From: Psammoneis japonica
Lineage: Eukaryota
NCBI GenBank assembly: GCA_008632985.1
Contig: QPGO01000218.1
Location: 62,001 to 117,546, forward strand
DNA length: 55,546 bases
Direction: 5' to 3'
Part shown: piece by piece, positions 22,764 through 55,546 of the stretch
Position numbering within the stretch: the stretch's first letter is position 1
How the letters are laid out: each line of letters begins with the position of its first letter
Position numbers and translations under genes: made by a program
The notes under the pieces: generated by a model
Told to the model about the DNA's origin: nothing
Databases searched by the model: none
The model's input: the letters and a program-made list of their open reading frames with translations, nothing else

Positions 22764-23864
22764 CGTGGTACCACCTCCAATTTAGCGGTTGGCTCTTGCC
22801 ATTTGCTATTGTATCATTTTGCAGAACCCTTGAGAATCCACGAAGGCAAAGAAAAGATCCAGCATAGTACCACCCACCCACCCCTCCTCGCACGACCTAC
22901 AGACTGCAGACACCCAGCCACCGGCCGCATCTTGAAGAATCTCACGAAGGCCTAAACTTGTGCTTTTCGCTAACTTGCCGTCATCAATCAAAGAGTCTAT
23001 CACAAGCGTTAGAAGTCGCCTAAAGCTCATCGAGTTGAATACAATGGCTATCCAGCAGTTCCTCACATCCAGCCACGGTTACATAATGAGTAGGATTTGT
23101 ACAGTAGAATTCGTTGAAACACACTGTACGACGTCAGCAAGAACATCTGTTACACTTGGCAGTAGATCGAGATATGAGGCGTCATAGTCGTACAAACGTC
23201 GTATAGTCGTAGTGGGTAGAACCGACTTCAACTACGAGATACATCATCGCACATTGAACTTCCACAAGATGTCGTTCCCGCTGACGTTCATAACCTCACC
23301 GGTGTGATGCCGCTGCTGTTAGCAGCACATCCCAATGTAGAACGCACGAGCGAACGATGACGTGTCAAGTAAATCGAGACGAGCGATCTACAACGTGTCG
23401 GGTCCGTCAATCATGCACGGAAGTTTGCTTCAACCCTCATTTTTCATGAGATCTGAACTTTTGCAAAGGAAGACTCTCCAGCCATCTCGACACAAAGCAT
23501 CGCCAGTTGCAGCTGAGACAACATCTGCGGGGACCAGAATGCACTGGTCGCAGAGTCTGCAGAGACCGGGAAACACCGGTTGCAGATTTGTCATTTCGCA
23601 TTCATTGTCATTCATTGCACTCTTGACACACTGAAGATTCATTGCACACACTCGTCCAGAAAACACTGGAAGTGGACCCTGCAGTGACTGGGAACACCAG
23701 TTGCAGGTCGGATCATCTGCCATCTGTTGATCATGTTGACTTTACTCAGATTGTTCTCATTGCAAGTCTCATGGGTCGTCGTGTTATCTGGTGTGCACCT
23801 GTTGCTGCGTTGTTGGCTCAACTTGTCTTTGCGCAGTGTGAGCCTGCCGTTGCAAGCTGTCTCA

Positions 23865-24632
23865 TGGATGACAGCAACACCAGGCACCGAGACAACACAA
23901 ACAGACGTTTTGAGAAGCTTCATTGCAGGAATGGAAACGAGCACGTCTCTTGGGTTTGTTTGGTGTGTGACAGATTGTCAAAACCGTCTCAGACTGCTCG
24001 ACTTTCTGTCAATGGATTGAATGAAGCCAGACACCTGTCAACTCCATCTGAATGGAACCAAGTGTCGGAAGACCTGCAAGATTGTCATCGCATCGATGAC
24101 GACCATGTTCCACGGGATTGCCGATGGATTTCCAACCTGTCACTTTCACCAAGAGCTCGACATGTTGTTCCGAACGACAACAGAAGGTCTGAAGGATTCA
24201 CTTGTTGCAGGCCTTGTAAAAGAAGTCTCTGCACTGCTTCTATGTCTTGTGGATGACAGCAACACCAGGCACCGAGACAATGTAAACAGACGTTTTGAGA
24301 AGCTTCATTGCAGGAATGGAAACGAGCACGTCCCTTGGGTTTGTCAGGTGTGTGACAGTTTGTTAAAACTGTCTCAGACCACTCGACTTTCCATCAATGG
24401 ATTGAATGAAGCCAGACACCTGTCAACTCCATCTGAATGGAACCAAGCATCGGAAGACCCACACGATTGTTGTCGCATCGATGACGACCACATTCCACGG
24501 GATTGCCGATGGATTTCCAACCTGCCACTTTCGCCAAGAGCTCGACACATTGTTCCGAACGACAACAGAAGGTCTGAAGGATTCACTTGTTGCAGGCCTT
24601 GCAAAAGAAGTCTCTGCACTGCTTCTGTGCCT
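23865..24632 (+). repeat. 385-bp tandem duplication within the Helitron (23865-24249 and 24250-24632)
   Basis: Both copies start tggatgacagcaacaccaggcaccgagac and align throughout, with about 15 differing sites. Confidence 0.97.
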
Positions 24633-27600
24633 CCGTGCGCAATGGCAAATGATTGCTGTTTTGGAACACCACCACCTGAATTATCGTGTCTTACCGAAGC
24701 AGAACTAGCTTCATCGACACCTGTGAAAACACATGGCTGCTGCTTCAGTTTTGTCGGTGGCAAACAGAAGAAACTGCAAGGTGGTCTTTCCCATTGCAAG
24801 ATAAACACAAAGAGCATCGCCCGCACCATTGTGCACTTTGACGTGTTGAACCTTCATCAAAATGTGGTTGTGTTGGCATCCGGCAAAATGACACCAGAGC
24901 AAAGGCGAATGGCCAGACAAAAGAACAAAATCAGGACTCACCATGTAATGAGAGCACTAGAATGGCTTGTCCATCACCACGAGAATTGGATGAATCAAGA
25001 CATCGATCTAGAGGAAGTGCGAAGTAATTTACAGAATCCAGTTTTAGTGGACAATGGCAGTTTAGACGAAAGCGAAAATGCAAACATTGAAACCACGGAG
25101 TCCCACAGTGTTCATTTCCCCGATGGCACCGTTTCTTCAACAACTGGTGGACAACGTAATTTAGACAGCTTCAAAGACTTGGTGCACGATGCAGCTGCAA
25201 GCGGTTTTGACATTGAATTCAAAGCTGATCTTTTGAAAGAATCAGTCAGTGACTTTAAGGACAACAACCTGGCAAATGCTTGCTTGCTGCAATTTCCTTG
25301 TGGGCGTGGCGGCATTGATGAAACAAGAATGAAAGAAGACGGGAGTCTCGCCGACTGTGCAAATCTAGCACATTGCGCAGATCACTTGGCCCGCATTTCT
25401 CAGCCCCATTTCCACAAGCAACTCTTTGTTCTGACCCTGTGCAATCTGACTGTGAAGCAACGAATGGTGCACAGTGCTGGATGGAAAGCAAGAGACAAAA
25501 ATCAAGCCAGACAATTCTCAAATGAACTGACACAAGACGACATCGACAGACCGGTGAACGCAGGAATTGCACATTGGGACATCGTTTCTTAAGTGCAGTG
25601 GATGTGGTGTCGGCATCTGTTCCACATGCAAATGAAGCAGCAAAAAAAATGAGAAGAAATGCTGAAACCTGCCAACACCACTTTGGACAACCTGGAGCAT
25701 TTTTAACGACAAGCCCCGATGATGCCAATTCCTTTTTAGTTCAAATTCACACGGACATGCTCATCGACAAAGGCAGAGATGTGACAGAAATGTCGGATGA
25801 AGAATTGGCCGAAAAGGCCAAGGCAAGAAACGAGCTTCGTGTGGAGCACCCGGGTGTCACGGCTTTTGCATTCGAAATGTCATTGGAAATCGTCACAGAA
25901 GAAGCAACAGGATGGGACTTAAAAAGGAATTCACCCAGAGAAGATTTTGAATTCTACGTGGGGAGACCCTCCGCTTTCATAGCTGCAATGGAAGAACAAG
26001 GTAGACTCTCGGCACACGGTCACATTCAGGCATGGTTTGAAGACACAAACACAGCAAGAGACAATCTGCATTCTGACAACAGAGATTTTAGGCGTGATGG
26101 TAAAAGAACACTGTCCAAACTGACCAGTCGGATCTGCACAACTGGGTTGATGTGCAGCGAGGATTGCACTCGACTGTCCATCATAGAGACTTTTGATCAT
26201 GATTGCACTGTTAATCTTGCCTGTCGTGCTGTGCCTAAAATGGTCAGCAATCAGCAGCTTCGATGCCCAAGGCACAAGCACGGTCAGAAATCAAAAAACG
26301 GCATGTTCGCGCATTGCCCTCATTGTGCTAAATGCTGGACAAACCCAGAGTTTGTGGCATGTTATTTGTTGAGTGACAACCGCGTCCCTGGTCTGACTGC
26401 TTGTCCAGACAACACAACAAAGAGACTTGAAGCCATGTGCACTCAGTGTCAACAATCCGATGAGAATGGGACAATCGAGCCATGCACTCCAGATGCTGCA
26501 TGCAGCCATCACATGCATGCCAACATCGCTTGTTTTTCTAAGCTGAAACAATTTCCAAAAAATGGAAAAAATTCCGAGAATGAAATGACCACTGGTGGAA
26601 GCGCGCGCAAGCGTAAATTGCACGAGATGCAAAATGCCGATTGCCGTTTCAATCTCCCCGCTGCACACAGCAAATGCAATGTAATCAGGAAAGCTCATGA
26701 TGCAAAAATTAAGTGGTTCTCTTGGGATGGCTCATTCCGTTGTAGATGCGTCAAAGAAATTGTCCCCAAGAGGAGAAAATGCGATGCTTTCCAGAATGTG
26801 TCGTGCCCTGCAATCAGCAGATCTAAGCTGACATGCAACACAAACATCGCAACTCTGATGCCAGGCCCCTCTGCACAGTGCACCATTGAGCACACACTCA
26901 AAGACACCCAAAAGGACGACACTGCCACTTGCCAAGAAGTGCTGAATGTCACTGACAAACTGGTGACAGAGCTTAGAAAGCATTCTTCTGATGCAGCGGA
27001 AACTGTAAGAAGATTGCTCTGGAGTGCTCATGCTCACAACAAAACCAACGTCATCAGACCGCCGCTTGCATCGTGCATTGCAAGAAACAGTGGGCGTTTT
27101 CTAACTTCTCATCAAACTGCATGGTGTCCACTCAAAGACATCACAAACATGCTAGAGAACGAAACAGTGTCTGCAATGGTTTCGCATTTCGGGGAGACTC
27201 CGTTCTGTCAATGTTTGGCCTTACATTGTTTGTGTCGACCCACACAAATGGAACATCTGAGTCCGTTTGTGTTCTGCAGAGCCCAAGTCTTCCACTTTCA
27301 AAGCCTGTTTAAAGGACCCAACCCAACAGATGACAGCTGAGGAAAAAGAGAAACACATGCTCGGACTGAAAGTGGCCCAACTGCCATTCACAATGAACAA
27401 TGCGACTGCAGGACACAAGCTTCAAGGAAGCGGTGTCGACAATGTGTTTGTGCACAGCTGGAGCTGTGCACAAAACTGGGCACATGTCATGCTCTCCAGG
27501 GTTGAGACCAGAAATGGTCTGCATCTTTGGCAACCGCTGAAGAGAGATTTAAGTCTGTGCAGACTGCCGGACGGGCATGACGCCCTGCTCCGGTTGATGG

Positions 27601-27662
27601 AAGGAAGAAGTGTCACATGCTTCACCAACGAACAGCATGATGACATTTTGCAGTCCAATTGA
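23865..27662 (+). mobile_element. Decayed Helitron-like RepHel element (DUF6570-like region, HUH Rep, C-terminal Pif1 helicase fragment)
   Basis: Motifs LSPRAR...MANDCCFGTPPPELSCLTEAE, LLQFPCGRGG, FGQPGAFLTTSPDD, EEQGRLSAHGHI (HUH), CRFNLP, degenerate motif 3 QCTIEHTLK, and Pif1 end NATAGHKLQG...AHVMLSRVETRNGL. Termini not identified. Confidence 0.85.
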
Positions 27663-28461
27663 CAAATGGAACATTTTGATGCTGCATGTGGGAATTGTTT
27701 CTACATTTTGGAAAATGTTCCAGGCTTCACACGCGGGCTTGCAGGCGTGCCCGGCAACAACCGACAGAAAACAAAGGGTCCAATCTAATGAATCGGTGTT
27801 GGCACATTGTTGCAATGATGGACACACTCAGCAACCAGTGATGCACAACGTTGGGACAGTTCTCTTGTCATCCACCATAGAACGATCACACCAGAATCAT
27901 CAAAAAGGGGAAACCCACGTCTCTTCTTGTGACACATCCATGCACGAACACAAAAATTAAATCGCCATTTTTTGACACAACATTGGAACATTGATGTAGA
28001 ATCACGTCGCACATTAATTGATTGCGAACCCATCATTCAAGCGTGTGAATTTTTTAAAAAATGATTGGTGGCAAGTAAAGATCAAAGCTCTAAAATTTGA
28101 TGCTCGCGCGCATGGCAATCCAAACCAGCCCGGGTTCCACACCTCCTCACTTCGTGTCCAGAGTTCCCACCACAAAGGAGGAACCAACATGAGCCAATCT
28201 AGAGAGTTGCGCATCCGAAGGCAGCATGTGTAATTCTGGAGCACATGAGTCTTCGATGGCATTTAGACAAATGGCAACTCTAGGCGCACACCGTGTTGCA
28301 TCTAAGAAACTGTGACAAATTTTTGAGCTTTAACAACAGCCACACGTCCCGCTCTCCGCTCATCAATTCCGCGGCAGACTGTCATTTCGCCATGCCCCAA
28401 GTCGGAAATGAATCTTCAAACGAAGTCCCGGAACTTTCAACTCACAATGTGTCACATGCAG

Positions 28462-28875
28462 TTGGGGCTCACAAGAGATTTCAAGAAAGATTTTCGCTTT
28501 TTTTGAAAACCAGCCCTTGTCTTTCTTGTGGTCAATCACTTCACTGCACTTGGTTGGTGGTTCTGCGGAAAGATTCATTCCTTCTAACTTGATCTTTTTT
28601 GAACCGATTTCGTCATCCAATCCACAATCGTCATCCATCACCTTGACATGAAGGACCATGTTGTCGAGGCCAGGAATGTCTTCAAAAGTGAACGTTTCAC
28701 CGCACTCAGGATTCAAGTCGTTCTCCTTCTTGCTGGAAGTCTTCTTGCCGTATCCCTTGTCAAACAACATGTTGTCCTGCTCGAGTTCAAACTTTACATG
28801 TGGATCAGACTTTCCAATTTTGTCGGCATCGCGAAGGTCTGTGATCTTGTCGAGAAGGACGGTTGGCACGCCCAT
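28462..28875 (-). pseudogene. C2-domain protein gene, mutated by TA->TG/CA changes (probable stop loss)
   Basis: MGVPTVLLDKITDLRDADKIGKSDPHVKF...NDLNPECGETFTF...VKVMDDD..DDEIG is a C2 fold with the canonical DPYV read as DPHV. The probable original stop TAA now reads CAA at 28462-28464. Confidence 0.75.
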
Positions 28876-29295
28876 GGTTGCAATGTCTTTTGAACTCGCA
28901 TGCCAAGCTCTTCCCGTTTCGGTTGCTCTTGCTTTGCTCTCGGTTTGTATTATGGTTATGGTCGCTGGTGTCTGGTGTCGCCAAAAATGAACGGGAATCA
29001 TCAATCTAAAAATCTCACAAAAGATCGCGATCCTTTTGGCGGGAAACGCAATTGATTGTGTATATAATTTATGTACAAGAATGAAGATTTCATTACGTGG
29101 ATACTCATAAGAATTAAAACATTCAGCACTGAATAGTAAATACAAACTGAAAGAAACTGCTTTTTCGCCTTTCTCGCTCATTTCTCCAAAAATGTTGGCG
29201 GAAAGGTGGTCGAATTTGTTTTTGCATTATTCTGGATTTTTGATCTGGCTTGTCCTTCCTGTCGCATTCCCATCTCTCACCATTATTTGCGCATC

Positions 29296-31689: not shown

Positions 31690-33330
31690 AACGAGCAAGA
31701 ACATCATGACATGCATGCTGTCAACTCTTGGTGTCGGTGGCATGGTCGCGCTGCGACTCTCCCGGCACTGCAGCTGTGCTCACATTTGGGGAAATAGCAT
31801 GATTTTCTGAATTTCACTGTGGTGAAAATTGACAAGCACGCAACAAGCATGGTGGTGCACCAGGGTTTTGTTTCCTTGTCGCCCTCCCTCCTCGATGTTG
31901 CCTTCGTGCACACATCAAAGGCCAGGTGCTGCACCTTGGTGCAGAGCATGTTTTTGAGAACAGGACAAGCTGCCATCATGGGCAGATTGTCTGCACAAAC
32001 TGTTTTTGTTGCTTTGAACATGGGGGGCACTGCAAAAGGGGGCCCTTTTCTTTGACACTTTGTGGCTGTTTCTGAGAGTGCACATGCGGCGGGAAATGGC
32101 AACCACACACGCAACTTCTTGCACTGTCATTTCACTTGCAAAAATTCTCTTGCTGTTGTTGAGCAAAACAGTGCATTGTCTCTCTCAGTTTGGCCAGAGT
32201 TTGAGAAGAGGAGCTTGGTTCCCAGCTTCCAGGCTCTTTTGTCTGTGGCTTGAGTTGTCATCAAAGATTGACAAAAGTGCTGAACAGCAACCTCCACCTC
32301 ACTGCTGGGGTGCTGTTGGGGCACCACTTGCACAATGGCCCTGTGTGTGCAAAAGAGAACACCCCCAGAGAGAGAGACATGTTTGTTTTGTGGGCAGCCA
32401 AAGGAGAGGTTGTTGTGGCAGCAGGTTCACAAGAAAGCCAGCTGTCTTTGGGTTGATCAAGCTGCATTATTTTTGTCAGCAAGTGCCACACCATGATGTG
32501 TGTGCAGAAGGCTTGCAGCTCTGTGCACACAGCGTTGCAGAGAAAACTCTCAGCACTGCTGCACAAGTTTTTTGGCTGTGTTGTGCATGATGTGATTTTT
32601 GCAAATTCCCTCAACCTGAATGCTGATGCACATGTGCATGTAGTGCAGCACATTTTACACAACAACCAGCAGCCCACACAACTGTCAGCAAACACAGCAG
32701 GGGCAAAAGTTGTTGGCTCACCGAGAGGGGCAGGCCTCTGCTCCTGCCTCCTGCATCTGACTCAACCACCAGCACATGAGCCAATGGCACCGATGAAGTG
32801 AACAAACACTGATGCAGTAGAAAGGACACGCCAACACCTTCTTGTGGATAAGAGTGAGTGTAACAAAGCCAACGTGAACCCAATCGTTGCGCCTTGGTGC
32901 ATGAGATGCAGGCCTCTGCTCCTGCCTCCTGCGTCTGACTCAACCAGCACATGAGCCAATGGCACCGATGAAGTGAACAAACACTGATGCAGTAGAAAGG
33001 GCAAGCCAACACCTTCTTGTGGATAAGAGTGAGTGCAATGAAGCCAACGTGAACCCAATCGTTGCACCATGGTGCATGAGATGCAGGCCTCTGCTCCTCC
33101 TGCCTCCTGTGTCTCTGACTCAACCAGCACACGAGCCAATGGCACCGATGAAGTGAACAAACACTGATGCAGTAGAAAGGACAAGCCAACACCTTCTTGT
33201 GGATAAGAGTGAGTGTAATAAAGCCAACGTGAACCTAATCGTTGCGCCTTGGTGCATGAGATGCACCAACAAGGGTGGTGAGAATGACACGGTCACACAA
33301 GTGACGAGGGACAGACCACTGCTGGACCAC
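31690..33330. repeat. TpA-depleted degenerate repeat or TE remnant between TGS1 and the next gene
   Basis: Abrupt loss of TA, TG/CA-rich sequence, Cys/His-rich spurious ORFs. Contains a tandem array. Confidence 0.7.
32730..33265. repeat. Three tandem copies of a ~177-bp unit (starts 32730, 32908, 33083)
   Basis: The unit gcaggcctctgctcc...gagccaatggcaccgatgaagtgaacaaacactgatgcagtagaaagg...ggtgcatgagat occurs three times. Confidence 0.97.
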
Positions 33331-44043: not shown

Positions 44044-46070
44044 AGAAACACTCGTTTCGCTTAGGTTAGGTTTGCAACGAAAATTAGAATTGCATTCCTA
44101 GTTATCTGCATACAGGATGCCTTGATTGATTCTCTCTTCATTCTCTTTTATTTAGATTGGCTAATCAAGTCTGAGGAACTACCAAAAGCTGGGGTAGACA
44201 CCTGTTCCCCTTGTGAGATCGATGCTGTGGGTTTGGTTTTAAGAATCAAATGAGAGCATTTTTAACGCCAGTCGCACCAACAGCTTGACGATCGGTTTTG
44301 TGGACCACCATGACTCTTTTTGCCAACAGGAAAGATGCAAAAAGTTGGCTCTGAACTTGCATCGAGCAATGCAAGAAACTCTCCACTGGCACTGGGGATG
44401 CAGGCACTGATGATGCAAGAGCGGCCCAAGATGCCGCTTCAACTGGCGCTCTAGCTCCAAGCAGCTGGGATTCGACAAAAGGGCAGCCACAACTTTCTGG
44501 CAGTGTCACACTGCAACCAGCCCTCTCTCTCTCTCTAGAAGGACGACTCTGTCTTGAGCCATTTCATGTGTGTTGCAAAGAAAAGGGCACTGGCAGAACA
44601 TTGCACAGTGATGGCTGTGGCTCCACAATTGGCAAGTGACATGTTCACCTCAACCACTGCACTCCCTTTGCTTTGCCTGCATTGCAAAACCACACAGCAG
44701 TTTCAAAACCATGCCTGACATTGAAAACATGTTGGCATCAACTCTTTGAGGTGCATGTTCATTGCCATGCTCTGTCATGGCCAATCACCATCATCTCTCA
44801 TCTCCGCACCACTTTGCCAGAGGTGACATGATTGCGGCAAGAAAAAGGCAGACAAACCTCTGAAGAAAGATTTCATGTCCACCAAACAAAGCAAGTGTCA
44901 CTCTTTTTCTACATCATCCATCATCTGCATGAAGCATCTGCTAACTTGTCATGTGGTGGCCACCAGTGTGGCTGCAAAATGTCATGCTGTGAGAATGGAA
45001 AGACCCACGACCCACCAGTGGAAACTGTGCAGGGCTGCCCAAACTCTGTCATTGCATTGTGGCCATGTGTGAGTCCAAAATGTGGATGGGCAAATGCATC
45101 AAGCCAGTTGTTGCAGCCAAGCAGACAGCAGAGAAAACATTTCCACAACACAGAGAGAAACAATCAAGCAACAAAGCTTTTGATTGTCTCAGTTCTGCAC
45201 AGAACACAAGAAGCAAGTGTTTTTGTGAAAGATCTCAAAGTTTGCTGAGTGCAACAAACATGAACAAAAGAGATGGGCTTGCCAATCTGCTGGCCCCTCA
45301 ATGGGATGCTCTCCTCCTTTTTTGATTGTCAGTGCAGTGCATCATGCACATCTCTGCAATCAAGCAGGGAGCTGACAAATGCTGTTGAGACATGCACAAA
45401 ACATGCCCTCTGACTGAAAAAACAAAATTCTGTTCACAATGGTGGGGGGCTTGGTGCCACACAAACAGGCTGCTGCTTTTTGCAAGGTCAACAAGAGTGC
45501 AACATAAAATCATTGCCATGCTTGGTGCAAGGGACAAGAGCTCATGCTTCCCTTCCTTGTGGTGTGCTTGCAAGTGCTTTTTAAATGCACAACTTTGTCT
45601 GTTCAGTGCAAAGCTGTCAAACCGGCAAGTCAATGTTGCAAAAGGAGGGAGAGCCCCGTTGGTCAGTCACAACAATGGCTGTGGGTTGCCAGTGGTGTTG
45701 CTGCACACTGTGATTTGTGTGACAACAGGTGCCTGCCAATGCTGAGTGACAAATCATGCAAACCCAATGATTTGCTCCAAAGAGTGAGATGAAACTGAAA
45801 GGTGAGAGATTGCTGACAGTGAAACCTCACTCATGAAGAGTTGCAAAATGAGCTGCATCATTGGCCACTGCATTTTTTCTTCAACACATCCAGGTTCTTT
45901 ACATTTCCCACAACCTGGATGCTGTTCCAACAAAAGCATCAAGAAAATTGCATGCACTGCACAAAGCAGCAGAAATTTCACTTGCGTGCTGCAGAAGCAG
46001 TGCACACAGCTGCAAGAAGCCCCCCAGTTGTTGGAGTTTTGCAGCTTGCCAGCCAGTGTGCATTTAGTGT

Positions 46071-47808
46071 TGCCAATCCTGAGCTTGCTGTGTGGCTTGC
46101 AAACACATTTCCTCTGTGCCATCATCTGCTTTTGCCATGTCAACCAGGTGCAGAAGCCAAAAGGTCAAAGGGAGCGCAAGACCCACAACTCAACCCAAGT
46201 TGAGAACACAAATCCACCATGTTGTTCACAATCATCAGCACATCTTACACTGCAATGTTGACTGTCCATCCTGCAAAAACTGCCTTTCACCACAATGTCC
46301 CAACACACTCCTTTGCACAAGTCATCAATTGGTTGGCCTCAGGAGGCACATCAAAAAGCATGATGGGAGGACGACACTTGGAAACCATGCCATTTAAACT
46401 CTGCCAACAAATGACCACCATTGCTGTTGAGCAAAGCACAACCCCATTTCACATGCCCAACCTTGCAACATTTCCATGGTTTAATCTGCTTTTTCTCATT
46501 CTGCACAAAGCTTGCACTCTCAGGGTTTTTGTTGAAACCACAAGTGTCCAACACATGCAATGCCACCTTGGCAACATTGGAGCAATTGCCACCCCCAGTG
46601 CAACCTGCTGATGTGTGTCTTTCAAGACATGCCAACATTCCTTCTTGGTGCCTTCTGTTGGTGTTGCAACCAACAACTTGTCCTTTTCTTTGTCATGGGT
46701 GTTGTGAGCATCCTTGCCAAACCCATCTTCTTTGTTGGCAATTTCTTCTGGGACAATCATCATGCCACAGGATGCTTTTGCCATCTCAACAGTGCCAGCA
46801 AACCAACCACAATGACATTGAAGCACCTCTCCTTCATCTTGATGAATGTGTGCTGACTGCTTTCAAGCCTTGACTGCCTGAACATGTGAGCACATCTTCT
46901 TCTCATTTGCATCAAACAAAGTTGACTTGACAATTTCCAACAGCACCACCACACCCCCCCACTCTTTCACCACTCTTGCACACTCTGTTGCTGCTCCTTC
47001 AATCTTGTGACAAAGGCCTTTGCACAGTGTCCCACAATTGCGTTGAATGCCCTTGCCTTCTGTGTCTTGTAGAATGTGATCTGTTCACACATGGTGATCA
47101 CATTGCTTGCCCCAGATTGTCTTGTCCTTCTTCAATGTGGCATCTCCCAATGAACACTCTGGCTCTTTTGTGGCATGCTCTCCTGCCTCAGTGATGCCAG
47201 CACCTGCATCTCCAGCCCAAACATTCTTCCAACACACTTGCTGATCTTCTTGACGGTTTCTGTGCAACCATCTGCCTGTGAACCCAACTCAGCAATGGCA
47301 TCATGCACCCACTCCTTTGAATCTTTTGTGCTTCTGCATCTGGCGCAGTCCTTGAGATTGTTTCTTTGCCCTTGTCCACCAGCTGGCTTGTTTGTTGCCA
47401 CAATCTGCCACATGAGACATGCCTTTGGATTCTTGATGACTTCCCAGCCCCCATGCTCTTGTTCCTGATGACTTCTCAGCCTTTTCCTTTGACCCACACT
47501 GCTCCTTTGAGTGTCATGCTGTGACTTTTTAGCTTCTGTGTTGGAGTTTCACAGCTTGCCGACTGGCACATGTTTGGTCTTGCCAACCCCAAACTCACTG
47601 TGTGGCTTGCAAACACAACCCCAATGCTTGTCATCTGCTGTTGCCATGTCAGCCAGTGCAGAAGCTAAAAAGTGAGCAGAAGACCTGCAACTCAACCCCA
47701 AGTCATGAATGCAAATCTGCCACAAAGTCCACAGTCATCAGTGCATCATGCACTGCAACATTGTTTGTCTGTCTTGCAAAAACTGCCTCTCACCAAAATG
47801 TTCCAACA
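46071..47808. repeat. Diverged ~230-bp direct repeats (46071-46305 and 47581-47808)
   Basis: Shared blocks ctgtgtggcttgcaaacaca, ttgccatgtca, gtgcagaagc, caactcaaccc and tgcaaaaactgcct.tcacca.aatgt.ccaaca. Confidence 0.85.
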
Positions 47809-48979
47809 GCACCTCTTGAGCCACAGCAACCTCAATCTTTTCTTTCACCAACTGCACATTGCATGCAGATGAGTCAAGAGTGAGTTTTTGCTTGCAGTTT
47901 GTTCCCTTTCTCATTGCCACACCCGCATGGCTTCTTTGGCACTGCAGTGGTGATGACTTGTGTGGCTGCCACTGGTGGCTCCACTGCACTGTCTGGTGCT
48001 TCAGCATTGGTCACTGCCCCAAGAACTCCTCCTCTTTTCAGAGCAGCTCAGCTGTGTAGACTCCTGTCTACCTTTTCTCTAGTTCCTTTTTTCTGGAGAA
48101 GGGCTGGCTCTGGCCATCTCAGAGGACTCCCACCCCCATTTGGTTGGCACAACTCTCAAAGCAGCAGGGCAGTCTCAGCTCTGATCTTGCCTCTGATGAC
48201 ACTGCCATGGCAGCTGGATTGTCTGCAATGGCAAGCAGTCTGGCAAATGCCACTGCAGCACTTTTCACATGCATCCTTGTTGCTGACAATGGTGTTCAGC
48301 TCTCCCCTGTGGCCCATCTGAGTGCTGTGCTGCTCAAGCAAAGCTCATCAGTGGCAAGGCAATTCTGTTGGCTTGGGTGCACACCTCACCTTCCTCTGTT
48401 GTGGCAGCCACTTGGCCTGACTCTGTCATTGTGGCAGCCTCTGGTCCAAGTGTTGCAGCCACCAGTGCCACCCATGTTGTCTTGCCAAAGTTGTGGAGTG
48501 CAACATGCCCATGCTGAATGCTGGCTCTGGGACATGCTGTGCCTCCATCATCTGCCTCTCCTTGTTGTCTGCCAGCCATGTCATTCATGCATGACTCATG
48601 TCATTCTTTCAGTTCTCTAAAACTGTCAGACTCTTTCAGCCATGCCTTTGTTGTGTGTGCTTTGACAAGACCCAAGCCCTTTCTTGGCTGGCGGTTCACA
48701 GCAGCACCCCAGCAGCAGACATCAGCTGCCTTTTGGCTTTGTTTGCAGGCTCTGTCTTTGGCAGTCATGTGGTCCTTGCCCAGAGCACTGTGAGAGTGAC
48801 TTGCCAGTTCCATCCCAACCTTTTGGAGGCCCAGGCAGGTGCAAAGATCCAGTGCACTCTCTCTCAAATGAGGCCTGAGTGTGCCAACTGTTTGATGTGC
48901 AGCTTCATCAAATCAGTGATGCAGAGCACTGCAGCCATGCCAGCATCACATCACACCAATCAGACCCCACCTGCATTGC

Positions 48980-51850
48980 GCAAGTGAAAAAAATGGATTG
49001 GTGCTCTCATGACCAATCTTTTGTTGGCTTCACACCCAGAAAAAGCAATTGCTCTGCAGAATTCTGTGGCAATTTGGTGCTGAGCTTAGCCAAGACTTTT
49101 CTGTCTCCCCAACAGCAATCCCCAACCTCACATTCATGACTGCAGCATTGGTGCAACAAAGTGAATTGGAAGAAAGAACTCCTGTTGTTGTCTCTGTTGA
49201 AAGAGGCCCGCGACAATGCTCCAAGTGCTTTCAGCAACAAAAAATGTGGAGTCAACCTTTGCCACTTTCCAACAGGTTCAAGAAGTGCCAAGACTGTGAA
49301 ACTTCATTGTTGGAGACCAGTTTGTTGTTGGGCCAAGTGTGGGTGACTTTCAGAGACTGCCTCATGAAAAAAAGCTGAAACCATTTTGCTCTAAAAAATG
49401 ACTGCCTCAACCAAAAGCAAAGTTTGTTGAGGTGGAGTCTGGCTCACATGTGGTTGAGCACAGTGGCAACAAAGAGTCACTGCAAGGTGTGCTGAAAGAG
49501 GTGCCCCCCCCCCCAGCTGCAAAAAAGTGTGCATGGAAAAGATTCTATGTTTTGTGAGTTGCGTGGCATCTGTGCAGCACAAAGATCATCAATGGCAAGA
49601 TGTTGAGCAGTGGGAACATGACAACACACACAAACATCAGTCTTTCTTATCTCACTCTTTTCTTGTGGGGAGAAACAGGTGATGGCCTCATGTGAAAGGG
49701 GGGAAGGACCAAAAATTGCTGAGGGTGGGGTTGAAAACAGCTGCCAAAAATTGTTTCAGAAAGTGTTTTGAAAGGTGCTCATTCTTGCCATGTCTGCCGT
49801 GCATTGACAACAGTTTTGTGCCAAAGGGATGAAGTGCCGCTTCTGAATGGAAGCTCCACAACCAGTCAATTGGCAACAACTGCACATGTGCTTGCAGGCT
49901 CTGTCACTTGCAACCTTGTTTTGCTGGATCAAGATGAGTCCAAGTGCTGCAAGTGCTGGATTGTCAGCTTGGCCAACATTGCCATCAAAGCTTTCAGAGC
50001 ACATGGGGGGCTGGTTCTTCATCAGATGCAAGAATTGCACTTGGGATGATTGCCATGTGTTGCTGGAAGCAACAGCCAGAATTGTTTGGACTTGAAGAAG
50101 AACCTGCCATCTGCACACCAGTCAAGAAGCTGTTTGGGTTGAATGAACAACCCAGGCCTTGATGATGGCAAAAAAGCAGTGCTGCCATTGGCAATCTTGG
50201 CAAAAAACCAAAGAATGACTCAATGGAGGGCAAAGCTTTTTGAAGTGGAGCCCAACTCATGTGCAGTTGAGCACAACAATGACAAAGAGGAGCCACTGCA
50301 AGGATGACTTAAAGTGGTGCTCCCAGTTGCAAAAAAGGTGAGCAAAGAAAATTCCGCACAGCTCCAAGCTGAGAAGGAGTCTTGTCCAGAGCTGCTTGGC
50401 ATCTGCACAAAGAGTTTCCATTTGCACTGTGCAAGCAAAACAGCAAAGTGTGCAAGGCTGGACACAATTGTCTGCTGTCCACACCAGACTCTTTGGTGAG
50501 GTCTGCATGTGCACCCTTGCCCACTGTCTTTTGTGCGCGCACCATTGTTCTTGATCATTTTGTTGAACCCCGCCATGACCAACATGAGAAAGTGCCACTT
50601 GATCTTGTTTTGCACTCTTTCCCTGTTGTGTGCAATGGATGATGGCTGCAGAAGAGACAGACTAAATCACCAAAGGCAAGATTGAAGACACCACAAAATT
50701 GTCTCAAAAGCATTGGAAGGTGCCCATTCTTGCTGCAGGGCACAAAAAAAAGTTTCTGGGAGAGAAACACCACAAAGAAGGGAGAAGCCACTTTTCTGAC
50801 AATTTTGCAGTTGCTTGGTCTGGTGAAGCAAGATGCTTTGCATTGCAACATGCCGTTGACAGCACTGCCAAAGCAACCAGCAATGGGCACAATGTGTGTG
50901 CTGCAAATGTGCACCAACAGCCTCCACACACCCAAGAGCAGCATTTCAATGTGAAGGTGTGGCAACAGATCTGTCATTTTTGTCACAAGAGTCTCTTGAA
51001 CTTGCCCTTGGAATGCTCCAAAGAAGCAAAAACTGCTGGCTGTCCGGAGCAACTCATTGTCAAATTTGTCAAAAGCACGCTTTGCTCCAGTGTGCAACTT
51101 TGCACATGAAGGGTCGTGTGTGTGCAATGCAAAACTCCATTTTTTTGTCTTTTGGTGTGCAGGGGGGTTCATTGATGGTGGCACTGTGCCACAAAACACA
51201 AAAAGTTGCACATTTTAGAGAAAAAGTTGCAGCACTGTGTTGTCAAGCAACTCAACTGGCTGCATGGCATTTTTCATGCTTTGCAATTTCCCCTCTGAGA
51301 AAAGAACTTCAACTTTGATGATGTGACATGCCAGATGTGCACAAAAAGCTGCAAAATGTTTCAGAGATCTGAGCTGGAAAGCACCCCCAACTGACTTGAT
51401 GCTTGTTTGCACTTCTCATTTTTGCCAATCACCAGCTGCAAGAAGGTGTTGCTCAAAACAGTCTGCTGGGCATGGCAGCACATCATGGGCAGGGGCAGGG
51501 CATTCTTCCACCAGCTCAACGTGCCAGTGTTCAACTCCCCACAATGCGTTGCTGGTGACTCTGCAGAAGTTGAAAAGTCTGGCATCCTTTGAGAATTTTT
51601 CTCAATGCTTTGAGCTGTCAGCCCCAAGCACAGATGATGATGCACCATGGACAACTGCAAAAAATGTTTTTGTTGTTCTCCAGGGCACAACGTGGAGAAG
51701 AACACCAAGCATGAGCTGCTCTGGGGGAGAACTTAGATTTCCTGTTGCACATCAGATTGATGAAAAATCCATGGCGCAAACCTCAGCAGCCAATGACTTC
51801 TCATCGAGGTTGCAGTTGCCACCCTAAAACCACCACTTGTGCTGGTCTTC
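48980..51850 (-). mobile_element. Possible decayed Plavaka-like DNA transposase remnant
   Basis: Scattered minus-strand fragments (CGELNTG, FDKFDNELLRTASSFCFFGAF, VWRLLVHI, FGDLVCLFCSH, ESFDGNVGQ...LIQQNKVASD) recall the motif order of Plavaka-type transposases. Heavily degenerate, recognised by eye only. Confidence 0.35.
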
Positions 51851-52699
51851 AAAAGCTCCCACACAGCTTGGCTTGAGCATGTGCAGTGCACGGCAAAGGA
51901 GGGAGGCTGCAATCATGAGTTGCTTGCCAAAGAGGAGGATGCAATCAAACACTGTTTCTTCCAGCACTTTTTGTTTTTGGTCCTGTGAGCTTGAGTGGCT
52001 TGTGCATGTCAAGCACAAAAACAGGACAGATGGACAAGTGGCAGATTGGGCTGTTTTTTTTTTTGCTGCGTGCGCAACATTTGGTGAAGTCAACCTCACT
52101 TGGCAAAGTTGACAGTCATCTCTTGATGACATTTGACATCATTGATGACTCTGCTGTGATGATCCTCATTGCCTCTCAATGAATTCAGCAGGGCTGTCTG
52201 CAGCATGCATTGTCAAGCAGGAAGAAGCACACATGTTTTCACAACTGCACATTGTTGCGTGCATCAGTTGCACTGCAATCATGGGTGCATGCAAAGGACA
52301 GACAAATCACACAGATTTGATCAGATGTCAAAAACTGCAAATGTCATCAATCAATGATGTTGACACACAATTTGTCAGTGCTTGTTGCACTGCAATCAGA
52401 TTTTCTGAATGGCCTTTGGAGCAAATGGCACACTTTGGGCCGTTGAGAGCTCCTTCAGAGAAATCCAAAATTGCAGCACAAAAAATCCAATCTCATGATT
52501 TTCTGCTTTTTGTGATTTGCTCCACTTTCATTTGCACTCATTCTTCAAGCATGGTGCATTGTGTGCATGCACCACAGAAGGCAAGTGCACAAAATTGAAG
52601 CTTTCACCCAATGCGACTGATGCCAAGTCTTCTGTCAAGTGAGGGACAGTTGCTCTGGTGCCCCTGAAAATGATTTCCAAGCCAAAGTTGCTCAAATGA

Positions 52700-55546
52700 A
52701 GCCAGTGCCTCAAGATGGAGCAATCTTTTTATCCTGAAGACAAGAAGAGTTGCACCCACACAATCAATGTCAAGAACTGCAACCAGCGGGGAGTCTGCTC
52801 CAAGTGTGTCAAATTCTTGAAGACTTGCCATTGATGCTTGGTTGGCCAGAACATGCAAAAGCAAGCCAACAAGTTCCATCTGATGCAATCAATGAAAAAC
52901 AGCAAGTTTCCAAGTGCATCAAATTCTTGAAGACTTGCTGTCAACTTTTGGATGGACAAAATGTGCAGAAGCAAGCCAACAAGTTCCATCTGATGCACAT
53001 GTTGTTGCAGGAGATGCTCTCCAAGTTTTTGAGAACAAGGCTGCAAAAACACATTTGCTTCAAAGAGGCAAAGACGCCTTTGAAAAATGCCTGTGTTTCC
53101 TTTCCAACCATGTTTCCCCCAAAGAGTGCACTTCAAAATCAGAAACGGCATCTGTGGCATGATCTCAAGAAGCCATCAGAGACCATGAAGATCTGCAAAG
53201 CTGCCACTTGGACTCAGGAAGGAATGAACAAATGTCTCAAGTTCCACCCTCTTTTTGTGCCAAAGCAGAATCTAGAGGACAAAGATGAGCTTGAGAACAT
53301 TGTCTGCAACCTTGCACCTCATTGATGGTGCTGTCAGTCAAGCTCACAAGGTCTGGAAGTTCACATTTGACTGGACTAATGTCAAATCTGATCACAACAG
53401 CAAGGCTGGGTTAAAGTCAAAGATGGGCTCAATTGCAGCTCCAAAAATGGTTGCCAATCTGGTGCCGAACATTCTGATTCCAAGATGTGGTTCAATCATT
53501 GCACATGGGCCACTCATGACATGGATCAATGTTGGGTTGATGGAAGACTGGCAAACTGATGCTGAGAGAACTTTGAACAAAACCCAAAACAGCAATGTTC
53601 AAATGGCAATTGCAGGTGGTCTTGCATTGTGACACTGAAAATGCCTTTCCAAAGGAAGAGTTGAATGCCATGATCACTCAGCCAGTCAACAAAACCCTCA
53701 AGACAAGTTCCTTGACATGTGACAAAAAGCACAAGGGCAGACATTCTGACTGTGATGCACTTGGCAAAGAAAACTTCCAATTTGAGTGCAAATGATGCAC
53801 AGTTGTTTTGAAAAATGACCAGCTTCTGTTGAGGAGTCTTGCACATGACTGGATGTCAGCAAGCCCAGAAAAGGCCAAAGCAACTCACACAGGTCCAGCA
53901 GTCATTGCTCACATGAACCCCTCTTTGAGAAAAGAGAGGGGTGAGACTCTGCATGTTCTTCTTGATGGTGAAACATCATCAACTGCAATTTTGTGCAAAT
54001 TCACGTGGAAATTGAGAACCAAAGAATCTGCCACCAAGACTTGGAAAACCAAGGGTGGACTCTTTGCAACTGACAGCAAATGCAAAATGCAGTTCTTGTC
54101 ACCTGAATTTGACAAGCACAAGCCCATTGACAAGACAACACATGCTCATGGCATGCCCTCTTCTTCGTGTTGATGTGATGTGATCATGGGACACAACCTG
54201 ATGAGCAGTCTTGGAGTCACACTCAGCTCCACAAATGTGATTAGAAGATGCTGTTGTGCCAACAAAGAATGTTGGCACTTTCTTTGATGCTGATGTCTTC
54301 AAGCTGATTGCCAACCACATTGAAGAGTCTGGTGCTGTGAATGGTCTCAATGGCAAGACCAATGGCACCAGGATCCTTGATGCCAACTGTCATGCTGGCA
54401 ACCTCATTGATGTGGCTGACAGCCACAGAGTCACATCTCACCCCAGGAGAACAGAAGCAACTGAACTCTCTTTTAAAAAGATTTGAAAAGCTTTTTGACA
54501 GTTCCTCAGGTGTGTGGAAAGGAAAACCAGCAGATCTCATGTTGAAATTGGGCATGACTCCACATGATTTGGAGCCATTTCCCACACCACAAGCCTTGGA
54601 GGCAACTGCTTGAAAGGAAGCAGGCAGACTCTGTGAAGCAGGAGTCTCAAAGAAAAAAAATGGACCACTCTGAATGGGCAGCTCCAACCTTTGTTCAACC
54701 CAGGAAAAATGATCAAGTTCGGTTCCCACCCAACTTTTAAAGAGCTGAGAGGGAGGCTGATGTGCACTCCACACCCTTTGCCCAATGTTTGGGATGCACT
54801 GCAGAAACTTGAAGGTTTCATGCATGTGACCTCATTTGATTTGACCACGAGATGCTGTCACATCAAGCTGACATGGGGTGCATGTGTCATTTGTGCATGA
54901 TGGTGATGCTGCAGGGCAAATGTGAATGTTGCAGACTCCTTGTGAGAATTTCCCCCCATCATTTTTTGAGAACACATGGGCAAACTCATGGCAGGTTTAG
55001 AGTTTGTCAAAACTTGCTGTGTTGATGTCATGCTGTGCCTGACAAAAAGTGACTTCAAAGATCAACTCCAGAAACTTGAGGAGACATTCACATGGCTCAA
55101 ACAAGCCAGTTTGAAGGTCAGTTCCAAGAAGTCCTTTTCAGCTGAGCATGATGCAGACTGTCCAGGCTTTCATGTCACCCAAAATGGTGTTGCACCACCC
55201 CCCATGAAAGTGGGGGCAATTCAAGCAACTGCAACTCCCAAAACTCACAAGGAGCTGCAATGTTTTGTTTGTGTGGTCAATTGTTGTCAAGACATGTGGC
55301 CTCAACAATCTCATGCACTTGCTCTCCTCTTGCCAAACTCACCCAAACAAAGGTTGAGTGGCAATGGATGAGCACGGAACAAAAAGCTTTCAAAAATGTG
55401 AAGAGTTGTGTCAAAGGACGTGTCATCATCACACCCAAATTTTGACAAACTCTTTGAGCAGTGTGCCAAAGGAAAAAAATTCTAAACTGGGAGCAGTCAC
55501 ATCACAAAACAATCAACCTGTTGCTTTCCACCGCTGCAGGTTAAAT
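52700..55546 (+). mobile_element. Decayed Ty3/Gypsy LTR retrotransposon (gag-protease-RT-start of RNase H), running off the window end
   Basis: gag-like FPPKSALQNQKRHL..LKKP; protease LHVLLDGETSS...WKTKGGLFAT...PEF; RT SEWAAPTF, PHPLPNVWDALQKLEGFMHVTSFDLTTRCCHIKL and LMAGLEFVKTCCVDV; RNase H start LGAVTSQNNQPVAF. Confidence 0.88.
52801..52997 (+). repeat. 110-bp-period tandem duplication in the gag region
   Basis: caagtg..tcaaattcttgaagacttgc...aagcaagccaacaagttccatctgatgca occurs at 52801 and 52911. Confidence 0.9.

Follow-up and report, generated by a model that had tools for sequence, protein, structure and literature searches.

TpA loss outpaces CpG loss in transposon DNA of the diatom Psammoneis japonica

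The window analysed here is a 55,546-nt stretch (G000:C219:62001-117546) of a contig of the diatom Psammoneis japonica (assembly G000, 91.4 Mb), and our subject is a Helitron transposon copy within it from which TpA dinucleotides have largely disappeared while most CpG have been kept. The gene-rich parts of the window carry, among others, the genes for Prp8, Pex16 and Hsp70; the Helitron and the other depleted blocks are collected in Table 1. In the Helitron interval 23865-27700 there are 46 TpA (observed/expected ratio, o/e, 0.17) and 135 CpG (o/e 0.64), against o/e values of 0.55 and 0.97 in the gene-rich positions 1-23864. Nine genic tiles of the same length held 109-156 TA and 187-253 CG, and the minimum among 1000 base shuffles of the interval was 226 TA and 177 CG, CpG being also somewhat under chance. 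A first-pass annotation had described many CpG as surviving and TA as largely gone in the Helitron, and both as gone in 44220-55546. Both descriptions agree with the counts, and the six CpG motifs which it quoted are present in both copies of the local duplication (15 CG and 2 TA in 23858-24242, 16 CG and 2 TA in 24243-24632). These copies differ by nine CA/TG, three CA/TA and two CpG changes, three other transitions and three transversions.

Table 1. Features of the window relevant to TpA and CpG depletion (values are o/e unless given as counts)
Feature	Position	Strand	Details
Non-autonomous Helitron copy, internally deleted	23041..28188	+	5148 bp; TpA 0.23, CpG 0.70 over the whole element
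Left end of Helitron, TpA largely kept	23041..23400	.	23 TA, 0.94
Local 385-bp tandem duplication	23858..24632	+	14 CpG shared between its two copies
RepHel relic, three frames	24246..27647	+	P0001 residues 1-440, 443-1008, 1746-1863
Small block low in both steps	31700..33290	.	TpA 0.14, CpG 0.28; holds 175-180 bp tandem repeat
Block poor in TpA and CpG, read as old	44220..55546	.	39 TpA (0.05), 61 CpG (0.10); reaches contig end
Ty3/gypsy-type long terminal repeat (LTR) retrotransposon pol relic	52700..55546	+	about 70% like younger copies keeping reverse transcriptase-RNaseH-integrase frames

The Helitron extends beyond the interval first described, and its ends were taken from an empty site in an independent sequencing run, X1, where one contig joins position 23040 to 28189 with a flank depth of 56, which is the single-copy depth. 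Since the flanks of this contig are nearly identical to ours (one substitution over about 1540 bp and nine over 2534 bp) and the element is missing from it, we have a recent insertion that is still polymorphic; X1 may represent a different strain or haplotype. The element is recognised by a Rep/helicase (RepHel) protein, a class feature of Helitrons, with Helitron_like_N and DUF6570 domains and 44-46% identity to a 1866-aa RepHel protein; 55 longer homologues exist, most of them with PIF1, and the window copy is without P0001 residues 1009-1745 (about 740 residues). G000 contains 14 copies at 94-100% identity, the window copy counted, a single more distant relative (79%) and a sister family (about 67%), and several copies contain N gaps. 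Two of them, L003 (on C44) and L004 (on C35), are 0.2% apart and have identical sequence on both sides over the compared stretch; they may be allelic, stem from a segmental duplication, or reflect a very recent transposition by a copy that was mutated beforehand.

To compare the two losses, 13 Helitron copies were aligned, L004 being left out for its closeness to L003 and the first local duplicate being left out against double counting. In the alignment 141 sites have TA in some copy, 182 have CG, and 80 have CA or TG only, while no site has both TA and CG. It is the CA/TG-only sites that decide ancestry, because TA and CG steps can each decay to CA or TG. Compared with 49 of the 55 outside RepHel proteins, 61 of these sites could be scored, and 42 fitted TA, 3 fitted CG and 16 were ties; the same protein polarity gave 54:8 (TA:CG) at 70 known TA sites and 15:80 at 114 CG-containing sites. 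Judged by this protein comparison, the CA/TG-only sites were formerly TpA. At 28 of the 182 CG-containing sites CG is present in one to three copies only, and these are gains, seven of which were moved to the TA class.

The resulting 228 TA-type sites comprise 671 TA, 869 TG, 817 CA, 8 CG and 7 other cells (one site in one copy), and the 154 true CpG sites 1574 CG, 116 TG/CA and 5 other. Ancestral TpA thus survives in 671 of 2365 cells (28%) and ancestral CpG in 1574 of 1690 (93%), which after Poisson correction corresponds to a TpA:CpG loss rate ratio of 17.1 (site bootstrap 13.6-22.0), or 8.2 on the strictest set, the 119 sites where two or more copies have TA. In the window copy itself, within 23865-27700, 34 of 147 TpA and 89 of 94 CpG survive. 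The earlier proposal that TpA erosion outpaces CpG loss is supported by these ratios, and it extends to all 40 copies of three families, two of Helitrons and one of LTR elements, in each of which TpA is kept less than CpG. Losses that had become fixed in all copies, and would be hidden from the alignment, are few and not clearly one-sided (of 376, TA was better at 8 and CG at 7 with a threshold of 2, and at 4 and 1 with a threshold of 4).

The protein sequence tells the same direction. Only 2 of the 1014 codons of the RepHel relic specify Tyr, compared with a Tyr share of 3.3% in the outside homologues, and Cys and His are raised. In 14 columns with at least 60% Tyr in the homologues, the Helitron copies have Cys 97 times, His 38 times, Phe 13 times and Tyr twice. 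The pre-loss state of the Helitron had a TpA o/e of 0.73. Over 3873 columns of the window copy CpG went from 156 to only 153, gains offsetting losses, while G+C rose from 42.8 to 47.3% and CpG o/e fell from 0.88 to 0.71; this drop is mostly a denominator effect, because the CpG count barely moves while G+C rises. When loss of TA only was simulated on genic DNA, CpG o/e dropped from 0.99 to 0.90, and TA loss carried to completion brought it down to 0.86. The CpG o/e of 0.10 in 44220-55546 therefore means real CpG loss.

That block has no open reading frame of at least 220 aa. Its LTR relic differs from the nearest copy (L089) by 43 transversions in 2828 bp, against 2-6 per 1650 bp of the Helitron copies among themselves; the two share 1 CpG and 3 TpA, and 17 CpG and 13 TpA are private. 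Such mostly private steps would be as expected at a turnover balance, to judge from this one pair. Among the 16 relatives in this LTR family the kept CpG falls with private transversions (rho -0.76). Young copies keep 0.89-0.99 of CpG and 0.10-0.54 of TpA, four copies that carry 3-5 private transversions per kb have retained 0.60-0.76 of CpG, and one distant copy keeps 0.03 of CpG and 0.02 of TpA. Pooled over the three families, retention falls with age with rho -0.60 for CpG and -0.45 for TpA. The earlier suggestion that the Helitron and the 44220-55546 block represent younger and older stages fits both this trend and the absence of the Helitron from the X1 allele.

On a genomic scale, forty 10-kb stretches with positions chosen blind (400 kb) were scored per kb. 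TpA o/e was below 0.3 in 203 of the 400 kb (annotated in part); 88 kb had TpA below 0.25 with CpG at least 0.5, 106 were low in both, and no kb among the 400 had CpG below 0.5 with TpA at least 0.3. The plot is L-shaped, with a Spearman coefficient of 0.79. The empty class of CpG-poor kb with normal TpA means that CpG loss is nested inside TpA loss, and hence that both share one territory. The two losses are uncoupled in rate and nested in place, so that of the first-pass term "uncoupled" the part concerning rate holds, and the part implying independent targets is not supported. Blocks in L064, L080 and L086, with G+C of 0.52-0.60, TpA of 0.05-0.25 and CpG of 0.75-0.97, may be young large elements.

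The fast process has a sharp sequence signature. Taken per strand, A>G occurred in a fraction of 0.359 of cells after T, 0.012 after A, 0.004 after C and 0.003 after G, and at TpA the fractions by the 3' base were 0.51 for TAC, 0.47 for TAT, 0.23 for TAG and 0.19 for TAA, a 3' pyrimidine (Y) being about three times faster than a purine (R). Eleven young LTR copies and ten copies of the sister Helitron family show the same asymmetry, and it is found also in the small tail of A>G outside TpA (71 of 847 sites with 3' Y vs 14 of 906 with 3' R, p 7.5e-12). In a comparison of 158 depleted with 166 normal kb the four flank classes gave 1.19, 2.55, 2.55 and 4.04; an additive two-strand model predicts 2.62 for the mixed contexts, which fits independent action per strand. 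No strand runs of TpA loss were seen within 20 bp (same-strand neighbours 404 of 815, null 415) or at 50, 150 and 1000 bp. TpA survival is patchy within copies (p 0.002), and only 3 sites resemble the opposite change, CA/TG>TA. The slow process is centred on CpG, where C>T was counted in 117 of 3428 cases against 21 of 8171 at CpC/CpT (about 13-fold, CpA being left out as circular). An R-C-G context for CpG loss appeared at one stage and was rejected as an artefact of the 28 CpG-gain sites, with no clear context on the 154 true sites.

From these data it seems probable that two mutation processes of very different speeds act on the same silenced transposon DNA, and we are highly confident in the narrower statement that TpA loss is a process separate from the decay of 5-methylcytosine (5mC), because the rewriting of TA steps to TG/CA runs at roughly ten times the speed of CG decay. 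What the alignments and counts show directly is the direction of change, the near-absence of anything but transitions, the rule of context, the gap between the rates, the nested territories, the trend with age and the lack of a local link to CpG losses. The fast process converts A:T to G:C at TpA, hitting single sites independently and on both strands, with a 5' T nearly required and a 3' pyrimidine about three times faster; it strips most TpA from still-young copies, turns Tyr to Cys or His, raises G+C and creates some new CpG. The slow one, CpG>TpG/CpA, is most likely 5mC deamination and empties CpG in old copies only. Pure transitions, the 5'-T rule and independent hits on both strands speak for a base-modifying step, which would most simply be the work of a host enzyme deaminating adenine in DNA, the resulting hypoxanthine being read as G; we regard this chemistry as the likelier one. 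A single upstream mark, such as heterochromatin, 5mC or small RNA, may aim both processes.

Several observations weigh against this picture. At three columns of conserved Tyr all 13 copies have Cys, and of 58 CA/TG-only sites 21 are lopsided; the cells are not all independent events, since some changes came from a donor already hit and part of the loss predates the burst. At TpA sites the copies are near star-like (largest pairwise concordance 0.67, null 95% limit 0.69). The age trend is not significant within either Helitron family. In two of three families copies that keep more TpA also tend to keep more CpG (rho 0.82 and 0.64; 0.08 in the main family). At one of the three distances examined, 60 bp, there is a slight excess of TpA loss around copy-specific CpG losses (445 of 586 against 431 under the null, p 0.02). 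As to chemistry and agent, A>G and T>C are read equally well from sequence alone, the TadA/ADAT-type genes that were found look like housekeeping genes, and the best site of human ADAR, TAG, as far as the parts of PMC5389660 available to us describe it, is a slow site here.

The equal readability as R[T>C]A gives room for a lesion on thymine, by which T in R-T-A would be modified to 5-hydroxymethyl- or 5-formyluracil as a silencing mark and would miscode as C; pure transitions are compatible with it, and a thymine mark is known on dinoflagellate repeats. We nevertheless find it unlikely, as there is no positive sign of it. A TET/JBP search of G000 gave no match, its control being equally silent.

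A by-product of 5mC decay would be more dull. In this reading T:G mismatches undergo long-patch repair by an error-prone polymerase of Pol eta type, which mutates nearby TA and AA steps. In its favour, the ranking of the 5' bases (T > A > C, G) is similar to Pol eta's WA motif, both losses occupy the same territory with the weak excess within 60 bp, and repaired mismatches leave no trace. Pol eta, however, also produces many transversions, and at TpA 1686 transition cells stand against 7 others. Around the CpG losses of the same copy there is no enrichment of TpA loss within 15 bp (p 0.58) or 30 bp (p 0.22), strand runs are missing, and 88 of the 400 kb have lost TpA with CpG o/e of at least 0.5. 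We consider this origin improbable, and the earlier view that TpA loss is unlikely to be a mere by-product of 5mC decay holds at the local scale.

Changes arising in RNA, through A-to-I editing or reverse-transcriptase error, and written back on transposition would suit the presence of two editase-domain genes, but the strands are equally hit, the copies are near star-like and Helitrons move without an RNA intermediate, so that this route is already largely refuted and very improbable. Hardly credible, finally, is the absence of any mutator, with native composition, selection against TpA, GC-biased conversion or assembly chimeras in its place: genic TpA is also low and several copies have N gaps, yet the pre-loss TpA was 0.73, conserved Tyr were destroyed, conversion or assembly error would not pick out TpA-Y, and changes of the same kinds are present in the independent run X1 (transitions at 114 of 123 listed differing places).

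For deamination of adenine the genome offers candidates, although we would give any named enzyme little chance of being the agent. G000 contains TadA-like deaminase genes as well as an ADAT2-like and an ADAT3-like gene, the last two labelled from their motifs. A TadA-type domain fused to a 2-oxoglutarate-Fe(II) oxygenase (DIOX_N and 2OG-FeII_Oxy; L043:313-1785, on G000:C79) probably serves base salvage. Of the two genes with an editase domain (PF02137), one is named ADAT1 in its matches. The other, G000:C79:344558-345390 (L115, L116), keeps the catalytic motifs HAE, PCG and CSDK; it has 248 matches, the named ones diatoms, shares none with the ADAT1-like list among the best 120 of each, and no double-stranded RNA-binding domain is among the Pfam entries of its matches. 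It belongs to a separate diatom-wide group, and we take it as a lead only. In the parts of the reports at hand, human ADAR is able to edit dA in DNA/RNA hybrids, where TAG is edited best (PMC5389660), and TadA/ADAT enzymes share with ADAR a strong preference for 5' U/T, TadA8.20 favouring UA with UAU on top on RNA, though it edits UAG well too (PMC12027372), unlike the slow TAG here. It is conceivable, and we say so only tentatively, that diatoms share with chlorarachniophytes a dedicated genome-defence DNA adenine deaminase, acting at T-A-(C/T) in silenced repeats without cytosine decay, which would have rewritten about half of the genome, and that the C79 editase, working on RNA:DNA hybrids, is its candidate.

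For the slow process there are 27 matches to C5 DNA methyltransferases in G000, several clustered on C297, C301, C10 and C28 and some broken, which are possibly carried by a mobile element; a scan of six methyltransferase frames gave two weak PF00145 matches and no SNF2 domain.

Side observations concern the edges of the depleted DNA and other loci. The left end of the Helitron keeps TpA in the window copy and in several others inserted beside normal DNA, an edge effect (TA cells kept across copies 99 of 206 in 23100-23349 vs 5 of 78 in 24100-24349) that suggests a chromatin boundary. On the right, a host C2-domain frame at 28189-28950 has a TpA of 0.19; spreading of the loss from the insertion was considered here and rejected, as the insertion-free X1 is identical over 28418-28842, and the low TpA is not caused by the insertion. 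At 32725-33285, on the edge of the small depleted block and just upstream of a TPR gene, stand three copies of its tandem repeat. Elsewhere in this block, at 32043-32390, X1 differs at 12 of 348 letters, against 9 of 2534 in neighbouring genes; either a paralogue or alleles diverging faster within the depleted DNA may account for this. In keeping with a diatom, G000 has 24 silicon-transporter matches (best 697 bits) and the named matches of two of its host genes are diatom sequences; G000:C38:226311-230342 is one open frame of 1511 aa with three silicon-transporter domains.

With a speed about ten times that of CpG decay, local independence from it and a T-A-Y signature, the simplest dull explanation is removed, and an enzyme assay has a clear standard: a candidate must reproduce the 5' preference T >> A > C, G together with a roughly threefold advantage of C/T over A/G at the 3' base. 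The two rates can serve as a two-hand clock for dating diatom transposon copies. In such DNA CpG o/e misleads, and the changes of G+C and of Tyr to Cys/His distort the annotation of transposable elements. A natural DNA adenine deaminase, if true, would be of interest to base-editing work.

Among known systems, fungal repeat-induced point mutation (RIP), made by an enzyme of RID/DNMT4 type, is similar in its dinucleotide-specific transitions confined to repeats and in the inactivation of transposons; it shows strand bias and premeiotic timing and depends on a sexual cycle and on homologous pairing. RIP makes TpA from CpA, whereas here TpA is ancestral and lost, and strand runs are missing. Decay of 5mC, with DNMT5 in diatoms, agrees with the roughly 13-fold excess of CpG>TpG/CpA and with its growth with age; it cannot turn TpA into CpA/TpG, and CpG loss in the Helitron family is just 7%. 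The consulted parts of PMC9998398 state that diatoms possess DNMT4 relatives of RID, and that in Phaeodactylum the loss of DNMT5a accompanies global methylation loss and overexpression of transposable elements.

The closest case is the rhizarian Bigelowiella natans, for which TpA hypermutation of integrated DNA of nucleocytoplasmic large DNA viruses and virophages has been described (Mettrop et al., bioRxiv 10.64898/2026.01.13.699255). As far as the accessible part of that preprint goes, it relies on mutation-accumulation lines, two viral insertions and 124 clusters genome-wide, finds a rate raised about 1000-fold and active in some lines only, and proposes an A-deaminase with an ADAT2-like candidate (10.64898/2026.01.13.699255). 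The ADAT2-like, ADAT3-like and TadA-like genes of G000 are expected housekeeping genes, and the enzyme is putative in both organisms. Common to both are TpA>TpG/CpA, nearly only transitions (1686 TG/CA and 8 CG vs 7 other at our 228 sites), hits on both strands and on invading DNA, and the focus on TpA (0.36 after T vs 0.003-0.012 after other bases); TpA-poor sequences there are, in the same part of the preprint, enriched for transposase and reverse transcriptase domains. Host genes are spared also here (0.05-0.23 in transposon blocks vs genic 0.55), in three transposon families instead of viruses. The words CpG, diatom and Helitron, and an analysis of flanking context, are absent from the accessible main text of the preprint, and a literature search, with most subscription papers outside its reach, found no diatom report of TpA hypermutation. 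Only one earlier report describes a natural and targeted A:T>G:C mutator acting on chromosomal DNA, and it does so without an enzyme. The diatom case is a variant with new features: it concerns DNA and LTR transposons, follows a 3'-pyrimidine rule with low activity outside TpA, and adds a measured relation to CpG, covering how far the two rates lie apart, how much of the fall in CpG o/e is arithmetic, how one loss is nested in the other, and tests of local coupling with a negative outcome.

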